From the IMG/VR virus record IMGVR_UViG_3300023176_002545: DNA of 64,000 bases. One strand, written 5' to 3'. The position numbers and the translations under genes were made by a program. The stretch's first letter is position 1. Each line of letters opens with the position of its first letter. The notes under the pieces were generated by a model, which was not told the DNA's origin, ran no database searches, and saw only the letters and a list, made by a program, of their open reading frames with translations. Positions 13,278-41,543 of the stretch are shown in pieces. Source of the DNA: a virus.

Positions 13278-13305
13278 TACTTACGATCCTAACTTATTAT
13301 GCATG

Positions 13306-13313
13306 TATTTATA
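13306..13313 (-). promoter_or_regulatory. T4 late promoter consensus TATAAATA
   Basis: Exact consensus 29 nt upstream of the 399-aa start, right after a hairpin. Confidence 0.75.
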
Positions 13314-13317
13314 TTAG

Positions 13318-13337
13318 AAATGAGCTAAAGCTCATTT
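13318..13337 (-). terminator. Hairpin, possible terminator or RNA 3' end
   Basis: AAAUGAGC-UUUA-GCUCAUUU 8-bp stem; U tail is short, so termination is uncertain. Confidence 0.45.
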
Positions 13338-13339
13338 TA

Positions 13340-13833
13340 GTTTTCGCTTACGCTCAAACTATGCACTTCGTTTATAGATTATGTGTGATAGAAGTAGTAG
13401 ATATGAATTAAAGCAATGTTACGAAGTAACATTGTAATTGCTTCATGTAGATTGTTTCAGTCAGACGGAACCTGCTACGGTTCCATCTAATCTCAAACTT
13501 CATGTGAGTTCGTCACAGCCGAGACTTGGAAGTAGGTGTTTTGCTGCTACACAATGGGCTCTGACCTTTCCCAACCTACGTCGACATCTAATGTGCATTA
13601 ATTGTAACATTAAGGTAGCATTATACGCTTTAATGTGCAATTTATGTAACATTATACCCGTTGCTTCGTTCCTAGTGCATACGGTTTTTATGTGTAATGT
13701 GCAGTTTTTCGACAGCCAACAATCTATCTATATCAATCAAACGCTCTACTACCGAACGCCGCTCAATATGTTACGTGTGCTCCGATCAAGGATGCTTTTT
13801 CCACAGCGGTATTTTCAAACTGGCCCGCCAACC
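13340..13833 (-). ncRNA. Candidate large structured non-coding RNA (about 500 nt)
   Basis: No ORF on the co-oriented strand in the track. Helices: 10 bp at 13463-13488, 9 bp at 13414-13434, long-range 9 bp between 13448-13456 and 13718-13726, GUAGGU/ACCUAC, and a duplicated hairpin unit at 13589 and 13631. Confidence 0.6.
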
Positions 13834-14283
13834 TTAGGTGTTGGATTGTTTTGCCTTGATAGTGTGTTCTAGTAATGCCTTACGCAATTTATCGGAACCG
13901 CCAACTCTACAATTAATAATCCCGTTATAATATTCATCCGTCTCTAATACACGGCGGTCAAATTGCTCTCGTGCCTCTATGTAACTCATTTCTGCTCTGC
14001 TTTTACACAGATAAAGTATTTCTCTTGTGAAATTTTTTGGGCCTAACTTGTCTACGTCTGCCTGTAGTCTATCTGAGCTGCCCCAGTAGTCTTTCCAATC
14101 GCTTTCTTTGTAGCCTCGTCTTTTGTTTTTTCTGCCTTTGAGTGGTGGCTTTGTGGTCTTAAACTTTGCTAGTTTTTTGCCTATGTATTTTTGCCCTGTG
14201 GTTTTATTAGTGATAAGGTAAACAAATCCTTCATATTCATCAGGAATTTCGTTAATATGTTTTCCTCTGTAAGTCCACTGCAT
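13834..14283 (-). CDS. GIY-YIG family nuclease
   Basis: GFVYLITN...KYIGKK motif, YWGSS, conserved Glu in SYIE and YYN. Confidence 0.8.
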   Translation of the reverse strand: MQWTYRGKHINEIPDEYEGFVYLITNKTTGQKYIGKKLAKFKTTKPPLKGRKNKRRGYKESDWKDYWGSSDRLQADVDKLGPKNFTREILYLCKSRAEMSYIEAREQFDRRVLETDEYYNGIINCRVGGSDKLRKALLEHTIKAKQSNT

Positions 14284-27623: not shown

Positions 27624-30600
27624 ATGGCAAATGAGCAACAGGAAACCAATCTTCCAGGAGAAACTAGAGATGAAAGAAAAACATCTTTAGACCTGTTACC
27701 TAAGTATTTTAGATCTAATACTAATAAAAAGTTTTTAGCTGCAACATTAGATCCGTTAATACAAGATGGCCAGATTGAAAAACTCAATGGATATCTTGGT
27801 CGTAAAACAGCAAAGTCTTTTAAAACAACTGATAACTATCTTCAAGATGTTACAGATGACAGACAAAATTATCAGTTAGAACCGGCACTAGTAGTTAAAG
27901 ATAATAACGAAAACATAACCTATTACAAAGACTACAACGATTATATTAACCAAATACGTGCATACGGTGGAAACACCGTCAACCATTCACGACTAAACAC
28001 TCAAGAATATTATTCTTGGGATCCTCGTGTTGATTGGGATAAGCTAACAAATTATAGAGAATATTATTGGATAAGTCAAGGCCCGGTTGCTATTAGCATT
28101 GCAGGTCAAGAAAAAGGTATTACTAGTACCTATACTGTAAAATTACAAAACAACGGTGATAACAAAAGTTATATATTAAGTCCTGATGGATTAACAAACA
28201 ATCCAACTATTAAACTATTTAGAGGACAAACATATAACTTTGAAGTTGATCAAAAAAATAATCCTTTCTTTATTAAAACTAAAAAGACCAAAGACGGATT
28301 TGAATACAATGAAGATGTAGTAAACAATGGTATTGAAAAAGGCATTGTTACAATTACCATTGATCAAAACACTCCGGATATTTTATATTATGTTAACACC
28401 GCAGATCTAAATGCATCTGGACTTATACAAGTTTTAGAAATTGAAGAAAATACCGAAATTGATGTTGACAATGAAATTGTAGGTAAAAAAACATATCAAT
28501 TAAAAAGTGGACACTATCTATCAAATGGTATGAAGGTTAACTTTTTAGGTGATGTTACTCCTGCAAAATATGCTGAAGGTAACTGGTACGTAGAAGGTGT
28601 TGGCAAAGAAATTGTTCTTGTTAGCGAACAAGAATTAGAAACAACATATCCGGGACAGGTACTAGAAGAACTACAGTTTGACGATGTAGCATTTGATATT
28701 GTACCTTTTGACCAAAACTCAGAAAAAGACAAAGATTACATTACAATTAACCGTGCAGCATATGACGGTAATCACTGGAGCCGTGCTAACCGTTGGTTCC
28801 ATAAAGATGTAATCGAAAAAAGTTTTGAAATTGTTGGTCTAACACCAGTTATTGATCAAACTGCAAGAGCAAACAGACCTATTCTTGAATTTATTCCTGG
28901 CATACAATTATACAACAATGGCTGGAATAGAATAGGCGATGTTGATCTAGTTGATACAACTACAACAAATATAATGAGCGAAATTGAAGGCTCTATTGGT
29001 TATTATGTTGATAACATAAATCTTGTTGAAGGCATGAGAGTTATCTTTACAGCAGACACTGATCTTTTAATTCGCGATAAGATTTTTACTGTTAAATTTA
29101 TACGATTTGAAAATGAAAGATTGATCACTCTTATTCCTGACAACGACATAGAAATTGCAACTGGCGACACTGTTATAGTAAAATCAGGTAAAGTAAATCA
29201 AGGTAAACAATTCTGGTTCAATGGAACACAATGGACTGAAGCACAACAAAAAACAGCTTCTAACCAGCCACCATTGTTTGACCTTTTTGACGGTAATGGT
29301 GTTAGCCTTAGTGATTCATCTGTTTACGGTGCAACTTCTTTTGTTGGAAACAAAGTATTTTCCTTTGCAGTTGGCAACGGAACTGCTGACAGTGTATTAG
29401 GGTTTCCATTAAAATATCTAAGTATTTCAAACATTGGTGATATTTTATTTGAATGTAACTTGCTAAGTGACACTTACGAATATGTTAAAAACGAAAAGAA
29501 ATTTTCAATCAATGCAGACGACACTTACATTAAAGTTTGGAGACGAGCTACAAAAACATTTGGGTATCACAGTGCATGGGAACGAGCAGTTACCGAAAGC
29601 AAACAAGAAGTAATTAGACATTATATTGCAGATCTTACACGTAATAGTTTTGAAATAGATGTTTATGACAGTCCTGCAGAACTTAGCGATCTTAAAGTTA
29701 AAGTTTTTGTAAACAATAAACTTAGAAGAGATTACACACTAACAACTGGTGCTAATGGATCTTTATATGTAACCTTTGATGCTGACCTTAATGAAAATGA
29801 TGGTATTATAATTAAAACAACGTCATTAGAAAACAAGAATGACAACGGCTATTACGAGTTTCCATTAAACTTACAAAACAATCCTAACAATGATAATCCG
29901 GTTAATATCACACTTGGTGAAATAACAGATCACGTTGAGTCTATTGCAAATGCTCATCCTGACTTTGAAGGATCATTTCCCGGCGTAACAAATTTAAGAG
30001 ATATTGCAACACTAAGCGGTTATGGAACACGTTTTGTAAAACATTCTGGTCCATTAAATATTGCTCTTTATCACCTAACAAACAAAGATACAAATGTTAT
30101 TAAGGCAATTGAGTATGCAGCAAAATCATATGATACTTTCCAAAAAACATTTTTAGATCAAATTACAACATTTAATATTACAAACGATCCTAATATAGAT
30201 GTTGATAATATTTTAGAAAATATAACAAAAACAAACAAAGTTGGAGATAGTTTCTATAACAGTGGCATGGTGCCTTTTAGAGCATTTAATAAAATTGTTC
30301 ATACTGTTGTTGATCCTAGTTTTGAACTTTACGGCATTTCAGAAATATACGAACCGTACAAACATCAAGACAAAGCACTGTTAGTTTATTTGAATAACGA
30401 ACAATTATTACTAGGTTCAGAGTACGAGTTTATTGACGATAACTTTGTTAAGATATTAAAAACACTAGCAGTAGATGATACTATAGAAATTAGAGAATAT
30501 TCTACACTAGTAGGTAACTACATTCCACCAACTCCTTCAAAGTTAGGTATGTTACCTAAATATGAACCTAAAAAATATTTAGACACTACACTAAGAATAC

Positions 30601-33600
30601 CTGTAAATGTAATACAAGGACACGACGGCAGCATTATTCGTGCTTTTGATGATTACAGAGATGAATTAATATTAGAATTAGAACGTAGAATTTATAATAA
30701 TATTAAAATTCAATATACTAATGATCTTATAGATATCTATAATTTTTACCCTGGCGGCTTTAGAACAACAGATTATTCTCTAACAGAAACTAATAATATT
30801 TTGCGTCCAATGTTCTTAAAGTGGCACAAAAATTTAACAACTTCTTATACTGACAATACCTTCTATGCCGAAGGTGAACCATTTACATATAATTACAGTT
30901 CGGGTTCATTTAATGGGAAACAACTTCCAGGTTTCTGGAGAGGAATATACCTATACTGGTATGATACTGATCGCCCACATTTAACTCCTTGGGAAATGCT
31001 AGGATACAGCATTCAACCTACATGGTGGGAGGACACATATGGTCCTGCTCCGTATACTAGTGAAAACTTAATTCTATGGAGAGACTTACAAGAAGGTCGT
31101 ATAAAAGAACCTGGAAATCAGCGTGTAGACAATGACTTTAGTCGTCCAGGTTTATTAGATATTATTCCTGTTGACGAAAACGGAAGACTCAAAGATCCTA
31201 TCTTTACAAACATTGCACAAAATTATGAAGCAACATTGTTTGGCAGTGAGTATAAGTTTGGTGACTTTGCACCGGTTGAAAATGCATGGAGACGTTCTAG
31301 CACCTATAGATTCTCTCAACTAGCAGCATGGTTCTTAAGCAAACCATCACAAGTATTTGGTGTTTATCTTGATAGAGCACATACTGCTCGTGATGTATCC
31401 GGTATTGTAAAATACGCAGGTGAATATGTGAGCCTAGCAGGGCTTTCTGATAAAGTTTCTAACACTGCTCTTGCAAGCGGCCTTATTGATTATGTTAACA
31501 ATTGGCTTTACCAAACAAGTTCTTCTTTTGTTGAAAATTACAAATTTGATCTAGCAAATGCAACCAACCAGTTGGGTGCTAAACTTGCAGGTTATACTGA
31601 AAAGTCTAAATTTAGATTAATACTAGACAGTCGTACTCCTTTAAATGAAGGCAATGTTTTCATTCCATCTGAGAACTATGAAATTTTCTTAAACAAAAGT
31701 TCTCCAGTTGACGTACTTGCTTACAGTGGTGTAATTATTGAAAAACGTACTAATGGATTTTTAATTAGAGGCTATGATCAAAAATTCCCTTATTTTACAT
31801 ATAGACCTGTACTTACTTCTCAAAACGACACATTAATAACAATAGGTGCAATTAGTGAAAGTTTTATTAACTGGGCAGAAGAGAAAAACTACATTGAAGG
31901 TAAAACTGTACAGTATGCAGGAAACTTTTATAGATGTAAAGAATCACATACCAGTGACGAAAACTTTGATGAAACTAAGTTTGTACGTTTGCCGTCATTA
32001 CCAACTGTAGGCGGCAATAGTTACTTCTATAGAAAACTTTACGATCAAATTGGTTACAAAGTTTTAACATATGGAACAGTTTTAAAAACAGTTCAAGAAG
32101 TTGTTGATTTTATCTTTGGATATTCAAAATATCTAGAAGAACAAGGATTTATATTTGACAACTATGATAACGAAAATCAAATACTACAAGATTGGGAGAC
32201 ATCTATTAAAGAATATGTTTTCTGGACAACACAAAACTGGGCAGAAGGAACAGTTATTGCATTAAGTCCAGGTGCCCAAACATTCTCACTTGATGTTGAA
32301 TATACAAACGTAGACAGTTTGAATAACGATTTTTATGATTATGAAATTTATAACAGCTCAGGCACAAGAGTACCTATACAAAATCTTGAAGTAACAAGAG
32401 CCAACAACAAGTTTACTGTTGAAAGTTTAGGCGAAGAAGGTATTTACTTTGCTAGATTACATCTAGTTCAAACTGAACATGTTGTATTGCTTGATAATAC
32501 AACAGTGTTTAATGACACAATTTACGAAAAGAGTGCAGGATATAGACAAGAACGTATCAAAGTTCTTGGTTATAAAACTATTCTCTGGGACGGTGGTCTA
32601 ACAACTCCAGGATTTATATTTGACAATGTTGTTATTAACGACTGGCAACCATTCCAAACTTACAAAATTGGTGACATTGTTAAACACAAAGAATATCTTT
32701 ACAGTGCAACTTCAAAAGTTGTTGCTGGAGAATACTTTGACACTAAAAATTGGCAAAAAATTGACAACCAACAAACAAGCGTTCTTTTACCAAACTGGGA
32801 TTATAGAGCAGAACAGTTTACAGATTTCTTTGATTTAGATACAGATAACTTTGATACTGAACAACAGCGTTTAGCACAACATACTATTGGTTATCAGAAA
32901 CGCCGTTATTTAGAAAATATTATTAATGATGACGTGAGTCAGTACAAGTTTTATCAAGGTATGATACTTGACAAAGGTACTAAAAACGTATTGTCTAAAA
33001 TGTTTGATAAACTAGGTGCTGCTGATAAAGAAAGCCTAGAGTTTTATGAAGAATGGGCAATTAAATCAGGAGACTACGGTGCTGTTGATAGTTTTGTTGA
33101 AGTTGAATATTTAATTGACGAATCACTAGTAAGATTAGAACCTCAACCATTTGAACTTGTTGATGCTATTAATTCATCGTCAACTGACCTAGTATATCGT
33201 CTAAGCAAAGAAGACGTATATTCAAAATTTGACGGTTATAATCATAAACCGTTTATGCAAACTAACAAACTGCCAGACTTTATTAGAACCGCAGGAAACG
33301 TTGACGAAAACGATGTTACAGCAAACGTAAAAACTATAGACGATATTCTTAAACTTAACATTGACGAATTTAAAGTTGGTTCTACAGTTTGGGTTAGTTT
33401 TTATAATTCAACTTGGAATATCCTTAGATTACAAAATTCTAAAATTAATGTTTTGTCAGCAGCAGCGTCTGGAACTGATGTAAGAGTAAAACTTACACAA
33501 CCAAATGCAGTAAGTGTTGGCGACATTATTGGTATTAAAAATATTTCTGCAGAAGTTGATAAGTTTTATAAAGTCAAATCTGTAGACAGTTATACAGTTA

Positions 33601-36600
33601 TACTTGCAGCAGACAAAAAACTTGATGAAGATGTTCAAGTTGATGATAGTAGCCAAGGGCTTCTATTTACTTTTGTTGATGCACGTATTCCAGACATGTC
33701 TAGTATCAATGACATTACACCTATTGAAGGCTTCCAACAAGGCGAATACATTTGGGTTGATGGAGAAAAAGGTAACTGGCAAGTACTTGAGAAAAATAAA
33801 GTATATGAACTAGCTGCTATTAACAACAACACTTCAACAACTAGATCGTTTGGCAGTGCAATAGCAGTTGACGAATACAATAGAGACTTTATTGTTGCTG
33901 ATCCAGCACATACTGTTACTGAGACACTACAGCGTGATTCAAATGACGTTGTAACAAAAGTAATTAAAACATCAGACGCAAAGGTTAATGTTTATGCTAG
34001 ACCAAACGATGTAACACAGCATAGACTAATACAAACAATTACATTACCAGAGTCATTATACGAATCTGGATTTAATACACAATATAGTGTAGAAGAGAAA
34101 CGTCCGCTGTTTACAGGGTTTGGATCTGTAATAGCACTATCTCCTGACACTAAGTTTCTTGCTGTTGGTTTACCAGATGCAGGAAATGTACCTTCATATT
34201 TCTTAGGGGACTGGAATTCAGCACTAACATATAATACTGAAGATGTTGTGTTATATAATGGAAAGTTTTATAAAGCATTATCAGACGGACTAATTGCAAC
34301 TTCACCTGATCTAGTAGCAGACTGGGAAGAAGTTGGTTACAATCCAGTCGATAGTAAATCAACTTCTAACAGTGGCGTAGATGGACAAGGTATTGTTGTT
34401 GTTTACGGAAGAACCGGAAGCGGAAGTTTTAGTATTCTCTTTATAATGCAATCACCTGAAATAGAAGCATATCAAAAGTTTGGTGAAAAGATTACTATTG
34501 CTAAAGTAGGTGAAGAAAGTTATAGAATGTTTGTAAGTGCAGTACGCCAAGGTAGCGTTGGTGCTGTATTTGTATTTGACAGAAACATTGATACAGGCGG
34601 CTTATGGAAATACCGTCCAGATTTATACCTACCACTAGCAGCAAATCCAGACGGTACTAGCGATGTTGAAATCAGTACAATTTCTATGGACTTTGGTCAA
34701 AGTGTTGCACATTCAAGAGATGGTAAAATATTAGCAGTTAGTGCTCCAAACGCAAACAGCGTTTATTATGAAAACTACAAAGGTCAGTATAGTCCGAGTC
34801 TTACATATGCTGTAGATACAGTTGTAGAATACAACGGTGCATACTGGAAAAAACTTACCACAGCAGGTGCAGGAACATTGCCGGCACTTGGAATCAACTG
34901 GGAAGAATTAACACAAGATACTAGTGGAAGTTTTGGTAAGGTATTTGTTTACAAGTATGAAAATAACAAATACAACCTTGTACAAACAATAAATGAAAGA
35001 ACACTAGACAATCTAGACTTTGGGCAAGGAGACAAGTTTGGTTACAGTATTGCATTTACTAAAGATGCTGCAACTCTTGTAATTGGATCGCCTGCTTATG
35101 ATACTAATTTAACTGACACAGGAAAAGTTGTAATTCTTGAAAATGATTTTGCTACAACTTCATCAAATGTAAATTACAGTTTAGTACAAACACTGCAAGT
35201 TAGATCGCAAGTTAATCAACAGTTTGGTGTTGGAGTAAGCATTAGTGACGATGTTATTGTAGTTGGATCTCGCCGAGGCGATCAAATACAACCAATAATG
35301 ATTGACAACGGCGAAACAACATTTGACTCTGATTCAACATATATTTCAAATGTATTTGAAAACACAGGAAAAATTGATGTTTACCGTAAGTACAAAGGTC
35401 AATACACATACGAAGATAGTTTAGTTGTTCCAGACGAAAATGCAAGCAACCTAGGCGAAAACGTAATAGCTAACAAGAATCACGTTATTACAGGCGTTAA
35501 TGCTTATAATGATCTTCAAGGTGCAGTGCTTGATTTCCATAGACCACAAAATGAATCAGTTTGGAAAGTACACAGACAAGCAATATTCCCTGCAGATGTA
35601 ACTAAGATCAAAAGTGCGTTCTTGTATGACACAAGAAAAAATATTGTCTTAAAAGAATTAGATGTTATCGATCCATTGCAAGGAAAAATTGTAGGAGCAG
35701 TAGAACAAGAATTAAAATATAAAACATTTTGGGATCCAGCAGTTTATACTGTTGGCAATGAAACACTAAATGTTGATGAAGTTGGTTCTTGGGACGGTAC
35801 ACATTTAGGCGAAGTATGGTGGGATTTAACTACAGCTCGTTTTGTAAACTATCATCAAAATTCAGCACTCTATAGAGGTAATAACTGGAGTAAATTAAAT
35901 GAGTATGGTAGTATTGATGTATATGAATGGATAAGTTCAAAATTCAAACCTAGTGAATACGATGCTCTATCTGATACTGAAGAAGCGTTGGCATTAGGTA
36001 TTTCAGGAAAATCCAAATATGGTGATGCAGCATATTCTATAGCAAGAGAATACGATCCTGTTGCTAAAATATTTACTAGCAAATATATGTTCTGGGTAAA
36101 AGGTAAAACAACAATACCGTATGTTGAAGGCCGCAGCATGGATGTGTCTTCTATGGCAACATTGATTGCAGATCCTAAAGCAGCTGGATATACACACATT
36201 GCTATAACAAGTAATGACAGTTTTGTGTTATATAATGCAAAACAATATCTAAACGATAAAGATACAGCATTGAATATTAGATTCTGGACAACAGACAAAA
36301 TTGATACAAATATTCATAGACAGTATCAAATAGTTTCTGAAGGATTAGATATTAGTGTTCCTAATGACACTATTGTTGACAAATGGTTTGACAGTTTAGT
36401 AGGATTTACACCTACAGGGCTACCAGTTCCTAATATTAATATTAATGAAAAACAACGTTATGGAATTTTAAACAAGCCAAGACAAAGCATGTTTAAAAAT
36501 AGAATAGAAGCATTAAAACAAGCAGTAGAATACTGTAATTATATTTTCTCTAAAAACGTTCTTGTAGATGATTTTGATTTAACTCCTTTGTTTGAAAAAG

Positions 36601-39600
36601 AAGCAGTGCCTGATGAATTTTCAAGATTATATGACCTTGAAATTACAGACGACCTTGAACTTACTTTTATTGCAACAGGTAAATTAACAACTGCTGAGTT
36701 AGAAATAGTTGTTGATGACGGACAAGTAAAAGATGTAATTGTTGTTAACGAAGGTAGAGGTTATATTAAACCTCCAAAACTTGAAGTAGTTGGTCAAGGC
36801 AAGAACGCAGAAATTGAAGCTGAAGTTGATAAGTTTGGTAGAATATCAAATATTATTATTAAAAATCCTGGTACAGGATATTTAGATGATACTTATATTT
36901 CTGTAAGACAATACACAGTATTAAGCACAAACGTTGACAATACAGGTAAATGGGGTCTATACACTTATGACTCTAGAAACAAAAAGTGGCAATTAACTAG
37001 AGTACAATCTTATGATGTAACAAATTATTGGTCATATATTGATTGGTATGCAACTGGGTTTAATGAAAAAACTCCAGTAGACTTTTTGCTAGAAGGATCA
37101 TATCAATTACAAGACATTAATCCAAGACCAGGACAAGTAGTTAAGATTTCTAATATTGGTAGTAGCGGAACTTGGTTATTACTGCAAAGAAACAACGAAG
37201 TTAACGAAAATGATATTAACTTAAATTATAATGTTGTTGGTAGGCAAAATGCTACAATTCAATTGAGTGACGAACTTTATAACTTTGATGCAAATGTATT
37301 GGGGTATGACGGTATTAGTTATGAAGAAATTAACTATGATAGTATTCCTACCCAAGAAGTAAGAGCAATACTGGAAACAATTAGAAATAATATTTTTGTT
37401 GATAATTTACAGGTAGAATTTAACAACTTATTCTTCAACTCAATTCGTTACATAATGGTTGAACAGCCAGCAGTTGATTGGATATTCAAAACAAGTTTTG
37501 TAAAAGCAAAACACAATGTTGGTTCTCTTGAACAACGTTCTACATATAAAAATGATAATCTTATTTCGTATGAAGATTATGTTAACGAAGTTAAACCATA
37601 CAAAACTAAAATTCGTGAATTTGTAAGCAGTTATACTAATGTTGAAACTGTTAATACTCTTACTACAGATTTTGATCTAAAATCAAACAACAATATTAAA
37701 GTAAGAGACAACAGACTTGAACTTGTAGACAACAATTCTACACTAAGCATTTATCCAGACAAGAGTTGGAAAGACAATCACTCATATGGCATAACTGAAA
37801 TTGCAATACAAAATGCAGGAAGCGGATATCAAACAGCACCTGAATTAACAATCCAAGGCGGTGGCGGCACTGGAGCAACTGCTCGTGCATTTATTGGACG
37901 CAATGGTATTATTACTAATGTTGTGGTTACTAACCCTGGAACAGGCTATTATTCAAGACCAGAAGTTATTATAAACGGCTCAGTTGACGACACAGGCGAG
38001 GACGCAGTTCTTATTGCTGTACTTGGCAATGACACTGTAAGAAAAAATAATCTTACTGTTAAGTTTGATAGAATTGTTGGCACACAAGAAATTTCTACAC
38101 TAGATGTTACAGAAACATTTACAGGTACTGGACTAATAACAACTTTTGCACTAAAATGGCCAGTTGATTTGAGAAAAGGTCTTACAACTGTTACAGTAAA
38201 TGGTACTGAACTTTTAGAAAGTGAATTTACATTAGGAAATGCATCAACGTTCCATGAAACATTTACAAAATCATACGGTCATTTAGAAATTCCTAATCCA
38301 CCCGATGCAACAAATGAAATTGTGGTATCATATAAAAAAGACATTTCGTTCTTAAGAGCATACGATAGAGTCAAATACTATTACATGCCAATTGCTGGTC
38401 AACTTGCAAACGATCCAGGAGCACTAATGACTGGTATTGACTACGGCGGTGTTAATGTAACTGGATTTGGATTTGAACCTTCCGGTGGTTGGGGAACAGA
38501 TGGTACTTCTTGGGATAATGTAACTTGGGAAGGTGCAGACGAAACTTTTACAGATGTTACAATTTACAGTGATAGCAATATAGCAACATATACATTTGAA
38601 CTTCCACCTCCAAGTGGAGAAAGTTGGAACGTATATGTAAACGGTGTAAGAATTGATGATCCTAATTTTGGAACAACAACTCCTGTAACAAATACAAATG
38701 CAGTAATGAAAACAATACATGGTGACGATTCAACTGTTGCATTTGATATTCCTTTACAAGATGTGTCATCTTTAATATTAGGTGATGGAAATTCAGAACA
38801 AATTATTCTAAGAAAAACAACCAGCGATGGTAGTTATATTCCTGTAGGCGTAGACATTGACAGTGTTGTAAATGGTGGTGATTTAGGTTATACAGTTTCA
38901 ACTGGATATAACCCAGAAGATATTACTATGGACGGTGATGGGTTTGTTACTGAAACAACCAGCGGCGGCTTAGAAGAACAATTACCAGGACACGTATCAG
39001 AAGCAATAGACATGTTTGTTTATAACCTATCTAAGAGTGGTGGCCCACAAATTAACAGCATAAGTTATATTGCTGACGGCAATACTAAGAGCTTTGCATA
39101 TATTGCAGATCCGCAAAGTAAAGATGCACTAATTGTTAAAGTTAATGACCGTATATTGCGTCCAACAGAGTACAAGTATACTCCAAACTTTGCAGCATAC
39201 AGTGATTTCTTAAACGCATATCAAAGTAATTTAGATATTAGACAGACTAGACTTCCTGTAGTAACTGCTGAAATTGCAGATATTGATAGTCAACTTACAA
39301 CTCTTAATACTCAGCTTGATGCAGCACTAGATGATATTACAAATGCCAGCCAGGCTATTAGTTTTTGGACTAGTGAAAGAGATTTTTATGAAACTCAAAT
39401 ATTGTTTATACAATCACAGCTATCAGGATTAGATCCGTCAAATCCACTATTTGGTCAACTGCAATCACAGCTTGGTGCAGCTCAAGCAGCTCTAACTAAT
39501 GCAGAAAACAACTTGTCAGATGCACAAGATGATCTAGCAACAGCAGAATCTACTAGAGATGCTGTTAGTGCAGAAATAGCAACACTTGAAAGTGACAAGA

Positions 39601-41543
39601 CATCACTTGAAAGCGAGCAAACAGTTTTAGAGTCTGAAATTAGAGATTTAGAAATTGATATTCAATCATTGAATGACTACTTAATAAATCCAGGAAAAAC
39701 TATTATTCTTAATACGGAACCAAATGCTAATGATATTGTTACTATAATGACATTTGGTACTAACGGTAATGACATTATTTTGATTGACGAGTTTAAAGGT
39801 GATGGCAGTACTAATGAATTTGTTACTCCACTTAAATTTACAGACAACTTAAGAGTGTTTGCAACAGTTAACGGTAAACGAGTAAATCCAAGATTGTTTG
39901 TTACAACAGAAGATTATGAACAATCAAACAGATTGGGACTTGACTTTAATCCAACACCTGATGCAAATGCAGATATCAAGTATACTGTTTATAATAGTGA
40001 TGCTCCAGATTACAGTTATATACAAAGACAGATATTTACAACTGATGGAAGTACAACAACTTATGATCTAGATCCTACACCTTATGGTGCAATACCTAGT
40101 GCAAACTTCCTAGTAGTATTTGCAGATAACAAAATGCTTAACGGTGGATACACACAGGTTTATACAGCAACAGACTCAGACGTTTATCAAGTTGATTTAA
40201 GCGATTTTAGTGATGGCGAATTTAGTGCAGATCATACAGAAGTTTATGTTGACGGAGAACTAAGAAGTCTTGGTATAGACTATCAGATTGACTTTGGTAA
40301 TAACGAAATTAATTTTACACCTGGTAAAATCAGTGCTGGACAAGAAATTAAGATATTCATTATGACGCTAGGCGAATATTATGTAATGAACGGCAAGTTG
40401 GTATTCCCAACAGCACCTGCTTCTGGTACAGATATTATGATAATGAGTTTCTATAACACAGACCTGTTTGATACAAAACACAGATCTAAAACAGTACTAA
40501 GCAGAAGAACACTTACACCTGATAGTCAATGGTACAGAAGCAGTGTTGCAGCTAATGCTGGTATTATTTTACTTGATACAAAAGTTTCAAATGCAAACTA
40601 TGTACTAGTTGCAGTCAACGGACAAATGCTAACACCTCACAGAGATTATACTATTATTGAAGGCGGTGCAGCAATACAAGTTGACATTGCTCGTAATATT
40701 AATAAAACAGACAAGTTTAGTATAGTTGTGTTTGATTACGATCCTGTTGAAAAGAGTTTTGCGTTTAGACAGTTTACTGATAATCTAAATAGAACGCATT
40801 ATAAAGCAATCAACACAGATAAATCAACAAAACTTGCTGCTGAATTAAATTGGTATGATAATACTATTATAGTTGAAGATTCAAGCATACTTGATACACC
40901 AAATGCACAACAAAATGTTCCAGGAATTATTTTTATAGGTTCTGAGCGTGTTGAATTTATGAAGAAAGACGGTAACGTACTAAGTCAACTAAGAAGAGGA
41001 ACACTTGGCACAGCAACTAAAGAAAATTATGCAATAGGTGAAGAAGTACTAAACCAAGGTAAAAGTTTAACTGTTGATTATTTAGACACAGAAATAACAG
41101 AAATATTCTACGGAGATGGTGTAACACAAGAATTTGCACTGCCATACACTCCGAGGTTAAATACATCAACAATTGGTGCCGGTAATACTTGGAATAGACA
41201 ACATGAAACTGATTCAAGCGTTACTCCAGTTCCAGAAACATATGGACAAGCAGATGATATTGAAGTTTTTGTTGAAGGCAAGCGTTTGTTAAAAGCTCCT
41301 TGCACAGCATATAATCCAGATAAAAACCAAGCAAGTCCAGCAGGTGATAGTAATTTACCTGCAGATTTTAGCGTTGACGGTACAGCAAAAGTACGCTTAA
41401 CAGTGCCGCCAAAGGTTGGAGCAAAGATAATTGTTAAGCGTAAACAAGGAGTATTGTGGACAGAGCGTGGAGTTAGCCTAGCAGATACAGAAAATGCCAT
41501 AGGTAAGTTCTTACGTGCTCAAACAGTTTCGTTTCCAAAATAA
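27624..41543 (+). CDS. Giant (4639 aa) baseplate wedge / adhesin-like structural protein (gp7 position)
   Basis: Follows the gp6-like gene. Contains FG-GAP-type repeats, four W/Y-x5-Y-x4-V-x-Y/H CBM5/12-like repeats, G.GY..AP...I.GGGG.GA repeats, short beta repeats and a coiled-coil insert. Confidence 0.75.
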   Translation: MANEQQETNLPGETRDERKTSLDLLPKYFRSNTNKKFLAATLDPLIQDGQIEKLNGYLGRKTAKSFKTTDNYLQDVTDDRQNYQLEPALVVKDNNENITYYKDYNDYINQIRAYGGNTVNHSRLNTQEYYSWDPRVDWDKLTNYREYYWISQGPVAISIAGQEKGITSTYTVKLQNNGDNKSYILSPDGLTNNPTIKLFRGQTYNFEVDQKNNPFFIKTKKTKDGFEYNEDVVNNGIEKGIVTITIDQNTPDILYYVNTADLNASGLIQVLEIEENTEIDVDNEIVGKKTYQLKSGHYLSNGMKVNFLGDVTPAKYAEGNWYVEGVGKEIVLVSEQELETTYPGQVLEELQFDDVAFDIVPFDQNSEKDKDYITINRAAYDGNHWSRANRWFHKDVIEKSFEIVGLTPVIDQTARANRPILEFIPGIQLYNNGWNRIGDVDLVDTTTTNIMSEIEGSIGYYVDNINLVEGMRVIFTADTDLLIRDKIFTVKFIRFENERLITLIPDNDIEIATGDTVIVKSGKVNQGKQFWFNGTQWTEAQQKTASNQPPLFDLFDGNGVSLSDSSVYGATSFVGNKVFSFAVGNGTADSVLGFPLKYLSISNIGDILFECNLLSDTYEYVKNEKKFSINADDTYIKVWRRATKTFGYHSAWERAVTESKQEVIRHYIADLTRNSFEIDVYDSPAELSDLKVKVFVNNKLRRDYTLTTGANGSLYVTFDADLNENDGIIIKTTSLENKNDNGYYEFPLNLQNNPNNDNPVNITLGEITDHVESIANAHPDFEGSFPGVTNLRDIATLSGYGTRFVKHSGPLNIALYHLTNKDTNVIKAIEYAAKSYDTFQKTFLDQITTFNITNDPNIDVDNILENITKTNKVGDSFYNSGMVPFRAFNKIVHTVVDPSFELYGISEIYEPYKHQDKALLVYLNNEQLLLGSEYEFIDDNFVKILKTLAVDDTIEIREYSTLVGNYIPPTPSKLGMLPKYEPKKYLDTTLRIPVNVIQGHDGSIIRAFDDYRDELILELERRIYNNIKIQYTNDLIDIYNFYPGGFRTTDYSLTETNNILRPMFLKWHKNLTTSYTDNTFYAEGEPFTYNYSSGSFNGKQLPGFWRGIYLYWYDTDRPHLTPWEMLGYSIQPTWWEDTYGPAPYTSENLILWRDLQEGRIKEPGNQRVDNDFSRPGLLDIIPVDENGRLKDPIFTNIAQNYEATLFGSEYKFGDFAPVENAWRRSSTYRFSQLAAWFLSKPSQVFGVYLDRAHTARDVSGIVKYAGEYVSLAGLSDKVSNTALASGLIDYVNNWLYQTSSSFVENYKFDLANATNQLGAKLAGYTEKSKFRLILDSRTPLNEGNVFIPSENYEIFLNKSSPVDVLAYSGVIIEKRTNGFLIRGYDQKFPYFTYRPVLTSQNDTLITIGAISESFINWAEEKNYIEGKTVQYAGNFYRCKESHTSDENFDETKFVRLPSLPTVGGNSYFYRKLYDQIGYKVLTYGTVLKTVQEVVDFIFGYSKYLEEQGFIFDNYDNENQILQDWETSIKEYVFWTTQNWAEGTVIALSPGAQTFSLDVEYTNVDSLNNDFYDYEIYNSSGTRVPIQNLEVTRANNKFTVESLGEEGIYFARLHLVQTEHVVLLDNTTVFNDTIYEKSAGYRQERIKVLGYKTILWDGGLTTPGFIFDNVVINDWQPFQTYKIGDIVKHKEYLYSATSKVVAGEYFDTKNWQKIDNQQTSVLLPNWDYRAEQFTDFFDLDTDNFDTEQQRLAQHTIGYQKRRYLENIINDDVSQYKFYQGMILDKGTKNVLSKMFDKLGAADKESLEFYEEWAIKSGDYGAVDSFVEVEYLIDESLVRLEPQPFELVDAINSSSTDLVYRLSKEDVYSKFDGYNHKPFMQTNKLPDFIRTAGNVDENDVTANVKTIDDILKLNIDEFKVGSTVWVSFYNSTWNILRLQNSKINVLSAAASGTDVRVKLTQPNAVSVGDIIGIKNISAEVDKFYKVKSVDSYTVILAADKKLDEDVQVDDSSQGLLFTFVDARIPDMSSINDITPIEGFQQGEYIWVDGEKGNWQVLEKNKVYELAAINNNTSTTRSFGSAIAVDEYNRDFIVADPAHTVTETLQRDSNDVVTKVIKTSDAKVNVYARPNDVTQHRLIQTITLPESLYESGFNTQYSVEEKRPLFTGFGSVIALSPDTKFLAVGLPDAGNVPSYFLGDWNSALTYNTEDVVLYNGKFYKALSDGLIATSPDLVADWEEVGYNPVDSKSTSNSGVDGQGIVVVYGRTGSGSFSILFIMQSPEIEAYQKFGEKITIAKVGEESYRMFVSAVRQGSVGAVFVFDRNIDTGGLWKYRPDLYLPLAANPDGTSDVEISTISMDFGQSVAHSRDGKILAVSAPNANSVYYENYKGQYSPSLTYAVDTVVEYNGAYWKKLTTAGAGTLPALGINWEELTQDTSGSFGKVFVYKYENNKYNLVQTINERTLDNLDFGQGDKFGYSIAFTKDAATLVIGSPAYDTNLTDTGKVVILENDFATTSSNVNYSLVQTLQVRSQVNQQFGVGVSISDDVIVVGSRRGDQIQPIMIDNGETTFDSDSTYISNVFENTGKIDVYRKYKGQYTYEDSLVVPDENASNLGENVIANKNHVITGVNAYNDLQGAVLDFHRPQNESVWKVHRQAIFPADVTKIKSAFLYDTRKNIVLKELDVIDPLQGKIVGAVEQELKYKTFWDPAVYTVGNETLNVDEVGSWDGTHLGEVWWDLTTARFVNYHQNSALYRGNNWSKLNEYGSIDVYEWISSKFKPSEYDALSDTEEALALGISGKSKYGDAAYSIAREYDPVAKIFTSKYMFWVKGKTTIPYVEGRSMDVSSMATLIADPKAAGYTHIAITSNDSFVLYNAKQYLNDKDTALNIRFWTTDKIDTNIHRQYQIVSEGLDISVPNDTIVDKWFDSLVGFTPTGLPVPNININEKQRYGILNKPRQSMFKNRIEALKQAVEYCNYIFSKNVLVDDFDLTPLFEKEAVPDEFSRLYDLEITDDLELTFIATGKLTTAELEIVVDDGQVKDVIVVNEGRGYIKPPKLEVVGQGKNAEIEAEVDKFGRISNIIIKNPGTGYLDDTYISVRQYTVLSTNVDNTGKWGLYTYDSRNKKWQLTRVQSYDVTNYWSYIDWYATGFNEKTPVDFLLEGSYQLQDINPRPGQVVKISNIGSSGTWLLLQRNNEVNENDINLNYNVVGRQNATIQLSDELYNFDANVLGYDGISYEEINYDSIPTQEVRAILETIRNNIFVDNLQVEFNNLFFNSIRYIMVEQPAVDWIFKTSFVKAKHNVGSLEQRSTYKNDNLISYEDYVNEVKPYKTKIREFVSSYTNVETVNTLTTDFDLKSNNNIKVRDNRLELVDNNSTLSIYPDKSWKDNHSYGITEIAIQNAGSGYQTAPELTIQGGGGTGATARAFIGRNGIITNVVVTNPGTGYYSRPEVIINGSVDDTGEDAVLIAVLGNDTVRKNNLTVKFDRIVGTQEISTLDVTETFTGTGLITTFALKWPVDLRKGLTTVTVNGTELLESEFTLGNASTFHETFTKSYGHLEIPNPPDATNEIVVSYKKDISFLRAYDRVKYYYMPIAGQLANDPGALMTGIDYGGVNVTGFGFEPSGGWGTDGTSWDNVTWEGADETFTDVTIYSDSNIATYTFELPPPSGESWNVYVNGVRIDDPNFGTTTPVTNTNAVMKTIHGDDSTVAFDIPLQDVSSLILGDGNSEQIILRKTTSDGSYIPVGVDIDSVVNGGDLGYTVSTGYNPEDITMDGDGFVTETTSGGLEEQLPGHVSEAIDMFVYNLSKSGGPQINSISYIADGNTKSFAYIADPQSKDALIVKVNDRILRPTEYKYTPNFAAYSDFLNAYQSNLDIRQTRLPVVTAEIADIDSQLTTLNTQLDAALDDITNASQAISFWTSERDFYETQILFIQSQLSGLDPSNPLFGQLQSQLGAAQAALTNAENNLSDAQDDLATAESTRDAVSAEIATLESDKTSLESEQTVLESEIRDLEIDIQSLNDYLINPGKTIILNTEPNANDIVTIMTFGTNGNDIILIDEFKGDGSTNEFVTPLKFTDNLRVFATVNGKRVNPRLFVTTEDYEQSNRLGLDFNPTPDANADIKYTVYNSDAPDYSYIQRQIFTTDGSTTTYDLDPTPYGAIPSANFLVVFADNKMLNGGYTQVYTATDSDVYQVDLSDFSDGEFSADHTEVYVDGELRSLGIDYQIDFGNNEINFTPGKISAGQEIKIFIMTLGEYYVMNGKLVFPTAPASGTDIMIMSFYNTDLFDTKHRSKTVLSRRTLTPDSQWYRSSVAANAGIILLDTKVSNANYVLVAVNGQMLTPHRDYTIIEGGAAIQVDIARNINKTDKFSIVVFDYDPVEKSFAFRQFTDNLNRTHYKAINTDKSTKLAAELNWYDNTIIVEDSSILDTPNAQQNVPGIIFIGSERVEFMKKDGNVLSQLRRGTLGTATKENYAIGEEVLNQGKSLTVDYLDTEITEIFYGDGVTQEFALPYTPRLNTSTIGAGNTWNRQHETDSSVTPVPETYGQADDIEVFVEGKRLLKAPCTAYNPDKNQASPAGDSNLPADFSVDGTAKVRLTVPPKVGAKIIVKRKQGVLWTERGVSLADTENAIGKFLRAQTVSFPK

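Follow-up and report, generated by a model that had tools for sequence, protein, structure and literature searches.

In plasmid ColE1, an upstream run of RNA II pairs with the template near the origin; structured RNAs lie beside the nuclease genes of the IscB/omega-RNA, HEARO and TnpB systems, and the bridge RNA of IS110 carries a segment identical to a DNA site. The ColE1 primer RNA is given as 550 nt in the excerpt of PMC5043065. For phage T4, the available sections of PMC3016281 describe origins that are primed by R-loops, report that R-loops formed in advance within an unwinding element set the T4 replisome going on non-origin plasmids, and list the rules of R-loop formation at T4 origins as open. 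Mini-hairpin DNA has been found at the G4, St-1 and alpha3 origins, at RSF1010 ssiA and at N4 promoters (PMC13037366, excerpt). In addition, the Polynucleobacter-1 motif (RF01718) is listed by Weinberg et al. 2010 as probably RNA and probably cis-regulatory, with 16 representatives (PMC2864571, excerpt).

The element described here consists of a folded RNA, two identical short repeats and a tail of DNA-type hairpins, and is an undescribed RNA-DNA module that stands outside the known families and probably works like a known kind of origin. Our literature search, with most subscription journals and preprint supplements outside its coverage, found no description of the whole unit. Like ColE1 RNA II, the element is a long folded non-coding RNA with a proposed hybrid to its own template and single-stranded DNA hairpins downstream. 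It differs in that it has no sequence homology to RNA II, occurs in phages and islands, and has a freely varying 7-mer as its pairing segment; moreover, no antisense RNA I was identified for it, and we only infer its priming. T4 oriF and oriG are likewise origins of a T4-like genome that are primed by a transcript and have A+T-rich DNA downstream, but in the available text about 100 bp (promoter plus unwinding element) is enough for them and no specific RNA sequence is needed (PMC3016281), whereas the element keeps a conserved 400-nt fold and a matched repeat. Its tail shares GCGNNAGC and C(GNA)G hairpins with the G4, St-1 and alpha3 origins, RSF1010 ssiA and N4 promoters as these are described in the excerpt of PMC13037366, but in the element the mini-hairpins come after a large RNA and are found on both strands. 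GOLLD, ROOL and OLE are likewise large pseudoknotted RNAs, some of them phage-borne (PMC12286853, excerpt), but the element has exchangeable domains, a self-matching repeat, a DNA-type tail and no Rfam match; the Rfam models for GOLLD, ROOL, OLE, group I and II introns and RNase P all left it unmatched. Unlike IscB/omega-RNA, HEARO, TnpB and the IS110 bridge RNA, it has neither an obligate protein partner nor a 15-20-nt variable guide, and it lacks transposon ends and multiple copies, its matched site being its own 3' flank.

The window, meaning the whole 64,000-nt stretch of IMG/VR record IMGVR_UViG_3300023176_002545 that was analysed, is part of a T4-like phage with a major head protein, portal, baseplate hub and late sigma factor; its structural region holds a 4639-aa ORF (27624-41543, +). 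Translations from the window also include a Mre11/Rad50-like pair, and the place of the element beside Mre11/Rad50 is fixed in T4-like jumbo phages. The first-pass annotation had singled out the largest gap of the window. The gap is real, extending over 556 nt from the stop codon of a GIY-YIG nuclease gene (13834) to the start of the next gene (13277), but its size is matched by a 558-nt gap behind the major capsid gene, inside which two Rfam RNAs were found. These are a glutamine riboswitch (2421-2468, -) and a freshwater-2 RNA (1972-2055, -), the latter with a late-promoter motif 15 nt upstream of it. At the end of the element, after the final hairpin, a T4-type late-promoter motif is present at 13306-13313 (-) as had been proposed, and forms the late promoter of the next gene. 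This motif, which we take to be the T4 consensus, has 11 matches across the window versus 26 expected, 8 of which fall within 40 nt of an ORF start.

Scans of the window with Rfam, tRNA and tmRNA models gave no match inside the 13278-13833 gap, and Polynucleobacter-1 in particular was matched neither at its gathering threshold nor at E values up to 10, in keeping with the novelty claimed at first. No coding frame is conserved in the gap, as the sense strand is open in 0 of 117 homologs and the antisense strand in 6 of 117; a 144-aa plus-strand ORF at 13438-13872 was rejected as a gene, not being conserved among homologs. The comparative work on the element was based on the DNA of relatives, and by that comparison a genuine RNA of some 400 bases with extensive folding is encoded on the minus strand of the gap. 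A model of 74 base pairs was scored on 60 distinct marine-type homologs, drawn from 137 candidates at <86% similarity with one long outlier excluded. With a model derived partly from the same 60 sequences, 87.1% of cells were paired and two-sided changes occurred at 41 of the 74 pairs; this result was equalled in 0 of 500 shuffles, and slid controls paired at 35-39%. Thus the covariation sought downstream of the nuclease homologs was found, and a new large structured RNA, with covariation and with neither an Rfam match for the window nor a conserved frame, is upheld. Four helices of the model align poorly (10-55% paired), the well-supported ones being those placed by coordinate below, and single-sequence folding energy was insignificant, with z of -1.49 on the minus strand and -1.77 on the plus strand. 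G-U pairs are common on the minus strand of the element.

The body spans about 400 nt at 13440-13844 (-), as supported by covariation in the 60 homologs and by mutual information, with its ends placed from the helices. Rather than starting at the nuclease stop codon as annotated, the RNA has its first helix strand inside the gene, whose last codons double as that strand; this helix, 13839-13844 / 13716-13721, shows two-sided changes at 3 of 6 pairs and closes a 5' domain (13716-13844, -) that comprises helices 1-5 of the model. Next come a hairpin at 13658-13684 (-; helices 11 and 12), recognised from invariant columns and carrying an invariant purine-rich loop motif at 13666-13671, and a long variable hairpin at 13588-13657 (-) that measures 9-114 nt among homologs, is not a guide, and is represented by only 8 nt in RNA contigs of one relative. 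The core at 13526-13588 (-) is near-invariant, with invariant columns and covariation, and contains a local stem (13570-13573 / 13555-13558) and a pseudoknot in which 13574-13579 pairs with 13532-13537 across a long-range helix (13691-13696 / 13548-13553). The long-range helix has two-sided changes in 6 of 6 pairs; the pseudoknot helix is 100% paired with no two-sided change. A 9-bp hairpin between the repeat copies (13464-13487, -) is 98.3% paired and has two-sided changes at 3 of 9 pairs, whereas a loop pairing of 13560-13566 with 13459-13465 was rejected for want of any two-sided change. The last 100 nt of the gap act like DNA hairpins and not like the RNA body.

Several pairings had been proposed from the single sequence. 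Hairpins of 9 bp are indeed present at 13414-13434, 13318-13337 and 13464-13487. A 9-bp pairing spanning about 270 nt fared poorly, being 76.6% paired without two-sided change; part of its 5' strand is also used by helices with better support, and when shortened to 5 bp it is 90% paired with no covariation. The pairing of GUAGGU with ACCUAC is 100% paired and plausible, but it has no two-sided change and is hence unproven, and that of UUGGGA with UUCCAA exists as an option, but competes both with GUAGGU/ACCUAC and with a local UGGG/CCCA stem. As for the duplicated unit spaced by 42 nt, its 9-mer does occur three times, but the duplication is confined to the hairpin that varies between 9 and 114 nt from strain to strain.

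Expression of the element is weakly shown. Contigs from four RNA runs cover the element and the alleles of relatives and likewise the neighbouring genes, at low depth, and 20 of the 24 runs listed are RNA; such contigs carry no strand, ends or level, and places in the core that they leave uncovered have no meaning. One RNA contig covers the nuclease gene and the start of the RNA.

The most unusual feature of the element is a pair of 7-nt direct repeats that differ between phages and stay identical within an element. In the window, copy 1 (13499-13505, -), the proposed guide, follows CUC, and copy 2 (13442-13448, -), the proposed DNA target on the template strand, follows TCT and lies 57 nt past copy 1; across loci the spacing is 46-68 nt, and over about 20 nt the surroundings of the two copies are alike. 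The two 7-mers are identical in 116 of 119 marine-type cores and in 144 of 148 freshwater-type cores, one further row having been excluded from the count because its flanks were unmatched. Of the four freshwater exceptions, two have copies shifted in register by 2 nt and two are without the module. In a degenerate-pattern scan of viral contigs that did not require identity, 76 of 80 loci were identical compared to about 12% expected, and the other four sit in unrelated, mostly coding DNA and are therefore regarded as chance matches. Couplings of the identity type between the repeats score as high as the best base pairs in the freshwater alignment.

On a tree of 194 nucleases, the minimum number of changes at repeat positions 1-5 was 23, 10, 4, 2 and 19, and was equal for each copy taken separately and for both taken jointly. 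Discordant tips numbered 0 at positions 1-6 and three at position 7; use of a tree from a short, recombining nuclease gene inflates the counts of change, not the lack of discordance. No complementary third partner of the repeats was found at a constant offset in the loci. As identity is maintained without such a partner, copy 1 would most simply pair with the template strand at copy 2, a pairing that we infer from sequence comparison. The direction of mismatches just beyond the repeat is consistent with this: of the discordant cases at position 8, 176 are explained by a G-T wobble of copy 1 against the strand opposite to copy 2 and 1 by the reverse wobble, with 22 transversions, and position 9 leans in the same direction (37 to 4), while positions -6 and 10 show no wobble direction. 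Positions 3, 4 and 6 hardly vary, a hint that a protein may read the repeat as well. Palindromic self-pairing of the two copies was considered by eye and dropped, as such pairing would leave identity unneeded and does not work for several variants. In a complete genome the 7-mer shows neither avoidance nor enrichment, with 61 occurrences observed and 60.7 expected.

Past copy 2 lies the tail, with three hairpins. The first (13414-13434, +) has a C(GNA)G mini-hairpin loop on the template (plus) strand and is also terminator-like on the minus strand; among homologs, a GNA-type loop occurs on the antisense strand in 104 of 134. The second (13344-13355, -) is a mini-hairpin of the GCGNNAGC type on the non-template strand, the motif being present in 197 of 255 tails, and the third base of its loop is a purine in 80 and a pyrimidine in 75, unlike RNA GNRA loops. 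The third (13317-13338, -) has a GNA or GNNA loop on the non-template strand in most homologs, though not in this strain, and a GNA-type loop on the sense strand was counted in 148 of 195. A cruder tetraloop count of GNRA to GNYA gave 86:38 vs 75:52, by which body and tail are only weakly separated.

The element was found downstream of the GIY-YIG gene in 61 of 61 close homologs with enough DNA (80 nuclease relatives, 19 of which end too soon; 60 with the core by pattern and one with a variant core) and in 72 of 74 distant homologs with enough DNA, being absent in 2 (80 relatives, 6 too short; 71 cores by pattern and L233 with one mismatch). It occurs in giant and small aquatic phages, with a distant form in small bacterial islands, and is single-copy in the one complete genome checked. 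Three RNA types searched against cultured-phage DNA, and two against plasmids, gave no real match, and a scan of species genomes for the marine core gave 3 matches in 2 assembled genomes, one of them a phage-like contig. Four further phages (L424, L449, L470 and L534) carry marine-type or divergent cores in other gene contexts.

Freshwater relatives at the orthologous locus carry sister RNAs with a different core, which begin with Polynucleobacter-1 in 11 of 20 and 6 of 16 loci in two samples and share the 3' module of the window. It follows that RF01718 represents the 5' part of a longer RNA, and the novelty of the RNA in the window is slightly reduced, since its sister RNAs have this described motif as their 5' domain. 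A profile of the freshwater 3' half matches the window at 13466-13295 (E 7.5e-8). Polynucleobacter-1 thus shares the locus with the element, and its sister RNAs share the repeat module and tail of the window, but the Rfam model is only 141 nt long and the 5' domain of the window does not match it. A freshwater 5'-domain profile matched neither the element in the window nor any of 126 marine-type 5' regions, and Polynucleobacter-1 was not matched in 10 bridging loci. The 5' domain is therefore exchangeable between lineages, its slot being taken by Polynucleobacter-1 in freshwater relatives. One 5' hairpin type accompanies either core (by eye), at least three different cores share one repeat module, and in L046 a freshwater-like core is joined with a marine-type repeat. 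Exchangeable 5' domains and mixed cores such as this indicate a modular unit composed of 5' domain, core, repeat module and tail. The Polynucleobacter-1 alignment contains a copy from a bacterial chromosome (NC_009379.1, 2130772-2130906). One subfamily bearing the motif (L310, L390 and L398) keeps the 5' and core parts without the repeat module, and upstream of the RNA in L310 lie an RNase H gene, a sigma-70 promoter and about nine tandem 14-bp repeats.

Metagenomes were scanned with one exact repeat pair, identity being required, and 80 of the 81 stretches obtained were examined. GIY-YIG was missing from at least 800 nt upstream in 43, present in 4, and 33 were short; most loci fell in two related clusters of 29 and 25. 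A phage integrase cluster was found in 18 island loci, a figure that comes from ORF clustering of loci many of which are too short, and tRNA-Phe in 5 of 26 loci scanned. Taxa, where the source names one, are mostly Gammaproteobacteria. The islands encode a repressor weakly similar to Arc (E 0.0015), and some also a clamp-loader-like ATPase. By hand count, a T4-type late-promoter motif lies 267-335 nt upstream of copy 1 in 47 of 47 islands with enough DNA, compared to 0 of 8 phage-type loci, and of the 42 C(GNA)G hairpins in 158 kb of island loci, 39 are in the tail just past copy 2. Profiles showed no homology between the window and the island form, which matches the freshwater repeat module weakly (E 0.011); both a promoter-based scan and a protein scan of viral contigs for this form were empty. 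With flanks viewed to at most 2.5 kb on each side, no Rep or terminase gene occurred within the island DNA. Islands of the L425-L501 series (for example L439, L481 and L489) are integrated at tRNA-Phe in marine Gammaproteobacteria with varied cargo, and their conserved 64-aa protein has 343 relatives and was absent from the viral contigs searched. These tRNA-Phe-integrated islands are possibly an undescribed satellite family.

The gene adjoining the RNA in the window encodes a SegE-like GIY-YIG nuclease of 149 aa (13834-14283, -; Pfam SegE_GIY-YIG, E 1e-34) that belongs to PHROG 447, a family mislabelled as NAD synthetase in PHROG and in many GenBank records. Its predicted model is nearest, weakly, to the I-TevI catalytic domain (E 0.075); the fold search gave no SLX1 match and nothing else clear, and a search of solved structures gave no match. 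With 74 of 80 loci found by the RNA pattern linked to GIY-YIG, the linkage is strong but not obligate, and the earlier suggestion of a nuclease-RNA particle is not supported, as RNA without the gene and the gene without RNA are both seen. Among the 76 true loci of the unbiased scan, GIY-YIG is in the locus in 62, missing within 2 kb upstream in 7 and downstream in 1, with 6 loci too short. The RNA also occurs in a lineage of small terminase-bearing phages that lacks GIY-YIG in the vicinity; between two of these phages, three positions of the repeat differ, each in both copies. Conversely, phage Melnitz encodes a GIY-YIG of 65% identity and lacks the RNA.

In 7 distinct contigs, the place of GIY-YIG upstream of the RNA at the usual jumbo-phage locus is taken by a RusA-like Holliday-junction resolvase (PHROG 244). 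The two were together in 0 of 5 GIY-bearing records, three of which are at least 90% complete, and in 0 of 4 RusA-bearing records, themselves only 24-55% complete. Within the recombination cluster, the GIY-YIG protein probably acts as a nuclease on branched DNA, a part in which the RusA-like resolvase can stand in for it; a resolvase role is read from the replacement, the predicted fold being weakly I-TevI-like. An endonuclease VII search gave no match, and its control was likewise silent.

Passenger genes of 250-340 aa often lie between the GIY-YIG gene and the RNA, and a sigma-70-type promoter directly upstream of the RNA was found in 5 of 217 loci scanned. Five loci (L093, L117, L133, L142 and L281) have a small zinc-ribbon ORF directly upstream of the RNA, seen in jumbo phages between nuclease and RNA and also in a GIY-free small phage; no family was found for it, an atlas search giving weak unnamed clusters only. 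Another small passenger ORF between nuclease and RNA (L099, L101, L154, L275 and L378) presumably resembles a domain of the exonuclease-X C-terminal type. In L143 the nuclease gene is followed by a Seg-like endonuclease ORF on the opposite strand, then by a promoter, a duplicated nuclease tail and the RNA, and in L534 the RNA is upstream of the GIY-YIG gene.

An RNA that reads its own template beside hairpins of single-stranded DNA, and that is single-copy and portable into small replicons, is best fitted by an RNA-primed origin. We give about even chances to the reading that the element is an RNA-primed, ColE1-like origin of DNA replication. Transcription would begin at an inserted early promoter or run on from the gene upstream, and the folded RNA would display copy 1 for pairing, over 7-10 bp, with the template strand at copy 2. 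This pairing would start a persistent RNA-DNA hybrid, whose RNA end would be trimmed and then serve as the leading-strand primer, while the displaced single strands would fold into mini-hairpins that act as loading sites for helicase and primase. In the islands, the T4-type late promoter would activate the module only upon infection by a T4-like phage. No Rep gene was seen in the DNA of the small phages and islands that carry the module. ColE1 carries the motif of the middle mini-hairpin of the tail at about position 1331, although the tail profile did not match ColE1, with only this 12-nt motif in common, and two sister RNAs had no match among plasmids. Base skew in a complete 347-kb relative tracks gene direction with no switch at the element, and the switch within the window is some 4.5 kb distant from the element. 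Against an origin stand the facts that mini-hairpins mark promoters too, as in N4, that the first tail hairpin scores as a terminator, that a hybrid of 7-10 bp is short, and that the L310, L390 and L398 subfamily does without the repeat.

The same pairing of copy 1 with the template could instead open the locus for packaging or cleavage, the hairpins marking a site for terminase or resolvase. In one small-phage lineage the element directly precedes the small and large terminase genes, and the island form has a late-type promoter; satellites commonly copy the packaging signals of their helpers. This account is nevertheless unlikely, because the RNA's own promoters in jumbo phages are of the sigma-70 early type, the element sits among non-packaging genes in other small phages, no terminase gene was seen in island DNA, and the small island protein was not found in viral contigs. 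A self-processing RNA, in which the pseudoknotted core would cut, ligate or attack at one copy with the other as guide, would account for the near-invariant core and its pseudoknot, for the alike surroundings of the two copies, which resemble two substrates of one site, and for an RNA not tied to one protein. We consider such a ribozyme rather improbable, as no Rfam ribozyme matched even at E up to 10, one repeat module is served by at least three different cores, and the contigs of the four RNA runs, at low depth, contained no joint between copy 1 and copy 2 and no circle.

The repeats might also be twin sites of one protein on a regulatory or structural RNA acting as an attenuator, an antisense target or an aid to late transcription. 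The listing of Polynucleobacter-1 as probably cis-regulatory (Weinberg 2010; PMC2864571, excerpt), the terminator-like first tail hairpin and a degenerate consensus common to the repeats agree with such a role. Twin protein sites would drift independently, however, whereas the repeats are identical over 19 variants, and identity holds between the close relatives L142 and L281, both without GIY-YIG; the downstream gene, moreover, varies in identity and direction. We therefore regard this role as decidedly improbable.

Covariation of the identity type is typical of bridge-RNA-like and DRT2-like systems, and the spread of the element to phages and islands that are unrelated is what one would expect if the repeat directed recombination or cDNA jumping. 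Yet it is single-copy and holds the same locus even in very distant jumbo phages, no recombinase lies beside the phage copies, whose insertion sites are not varied, and a reverse transcriptase search found none in 5 records, one of them complete, with its control detected in 3 of 14 genomes; a mobility guide or template-jump signal is accordingly very improbable. Least probable of all is an OMEGA-like guide RNA of the adjacent GIY-YIG nuclease, since, despite tight linkage in most jumbo phages (61/61, 72/74 and 74/80 loci) and an RNA start within the gene tail, with one RNA contig over both, each occurs without the other, the RusA-like resolvase replaces the protein and was never found together with it in the loci and records checked, proteins 93-96% identical adjoin different repeats, the only long variable part forms a hairpin inside the RNA, for which the window offers no target, and the sole guide-like feature, of 7-10 nt and internal, points at the element's own DNA.

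What is new here is the link to Polynucleobacter-1, the unbiased test of the repeats, the replacement by a resolvase and the island form. Even without the origin reading, identical repeats that co-mutate over dozens of inferred changes demand a mechanism, and none of the described RNA families found here supplies one. The element would place an orphan Rfam motif of 2010 in context, would show that large RNAs can exchange entire domains about a fixed 3' module, and would point to an island family that possibly replicates without a Rep protein. Replication start in T4-like phages beyond T4 is largely unknown, and the element is a compact, single-copy candidate. More tentatively, and with somewhat less than even confidence, these may be widespread self-addressing RNAs, in which a guide of 7-10 nt on an exchangeable scaffold invades its own DNA and which serve as the main origin of jumbo phages and as the satellite replicon of Rep-less islands. 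If so, base pairing would dictate where an origin or cut site lies, and a change to both copies could reprogram it. The element would then be the main origin of T4-like jumbo phages, and the islands, replicated by the machinery of an infecting phage through their late promoter, would be a new kind of protein-free satellite replicon.
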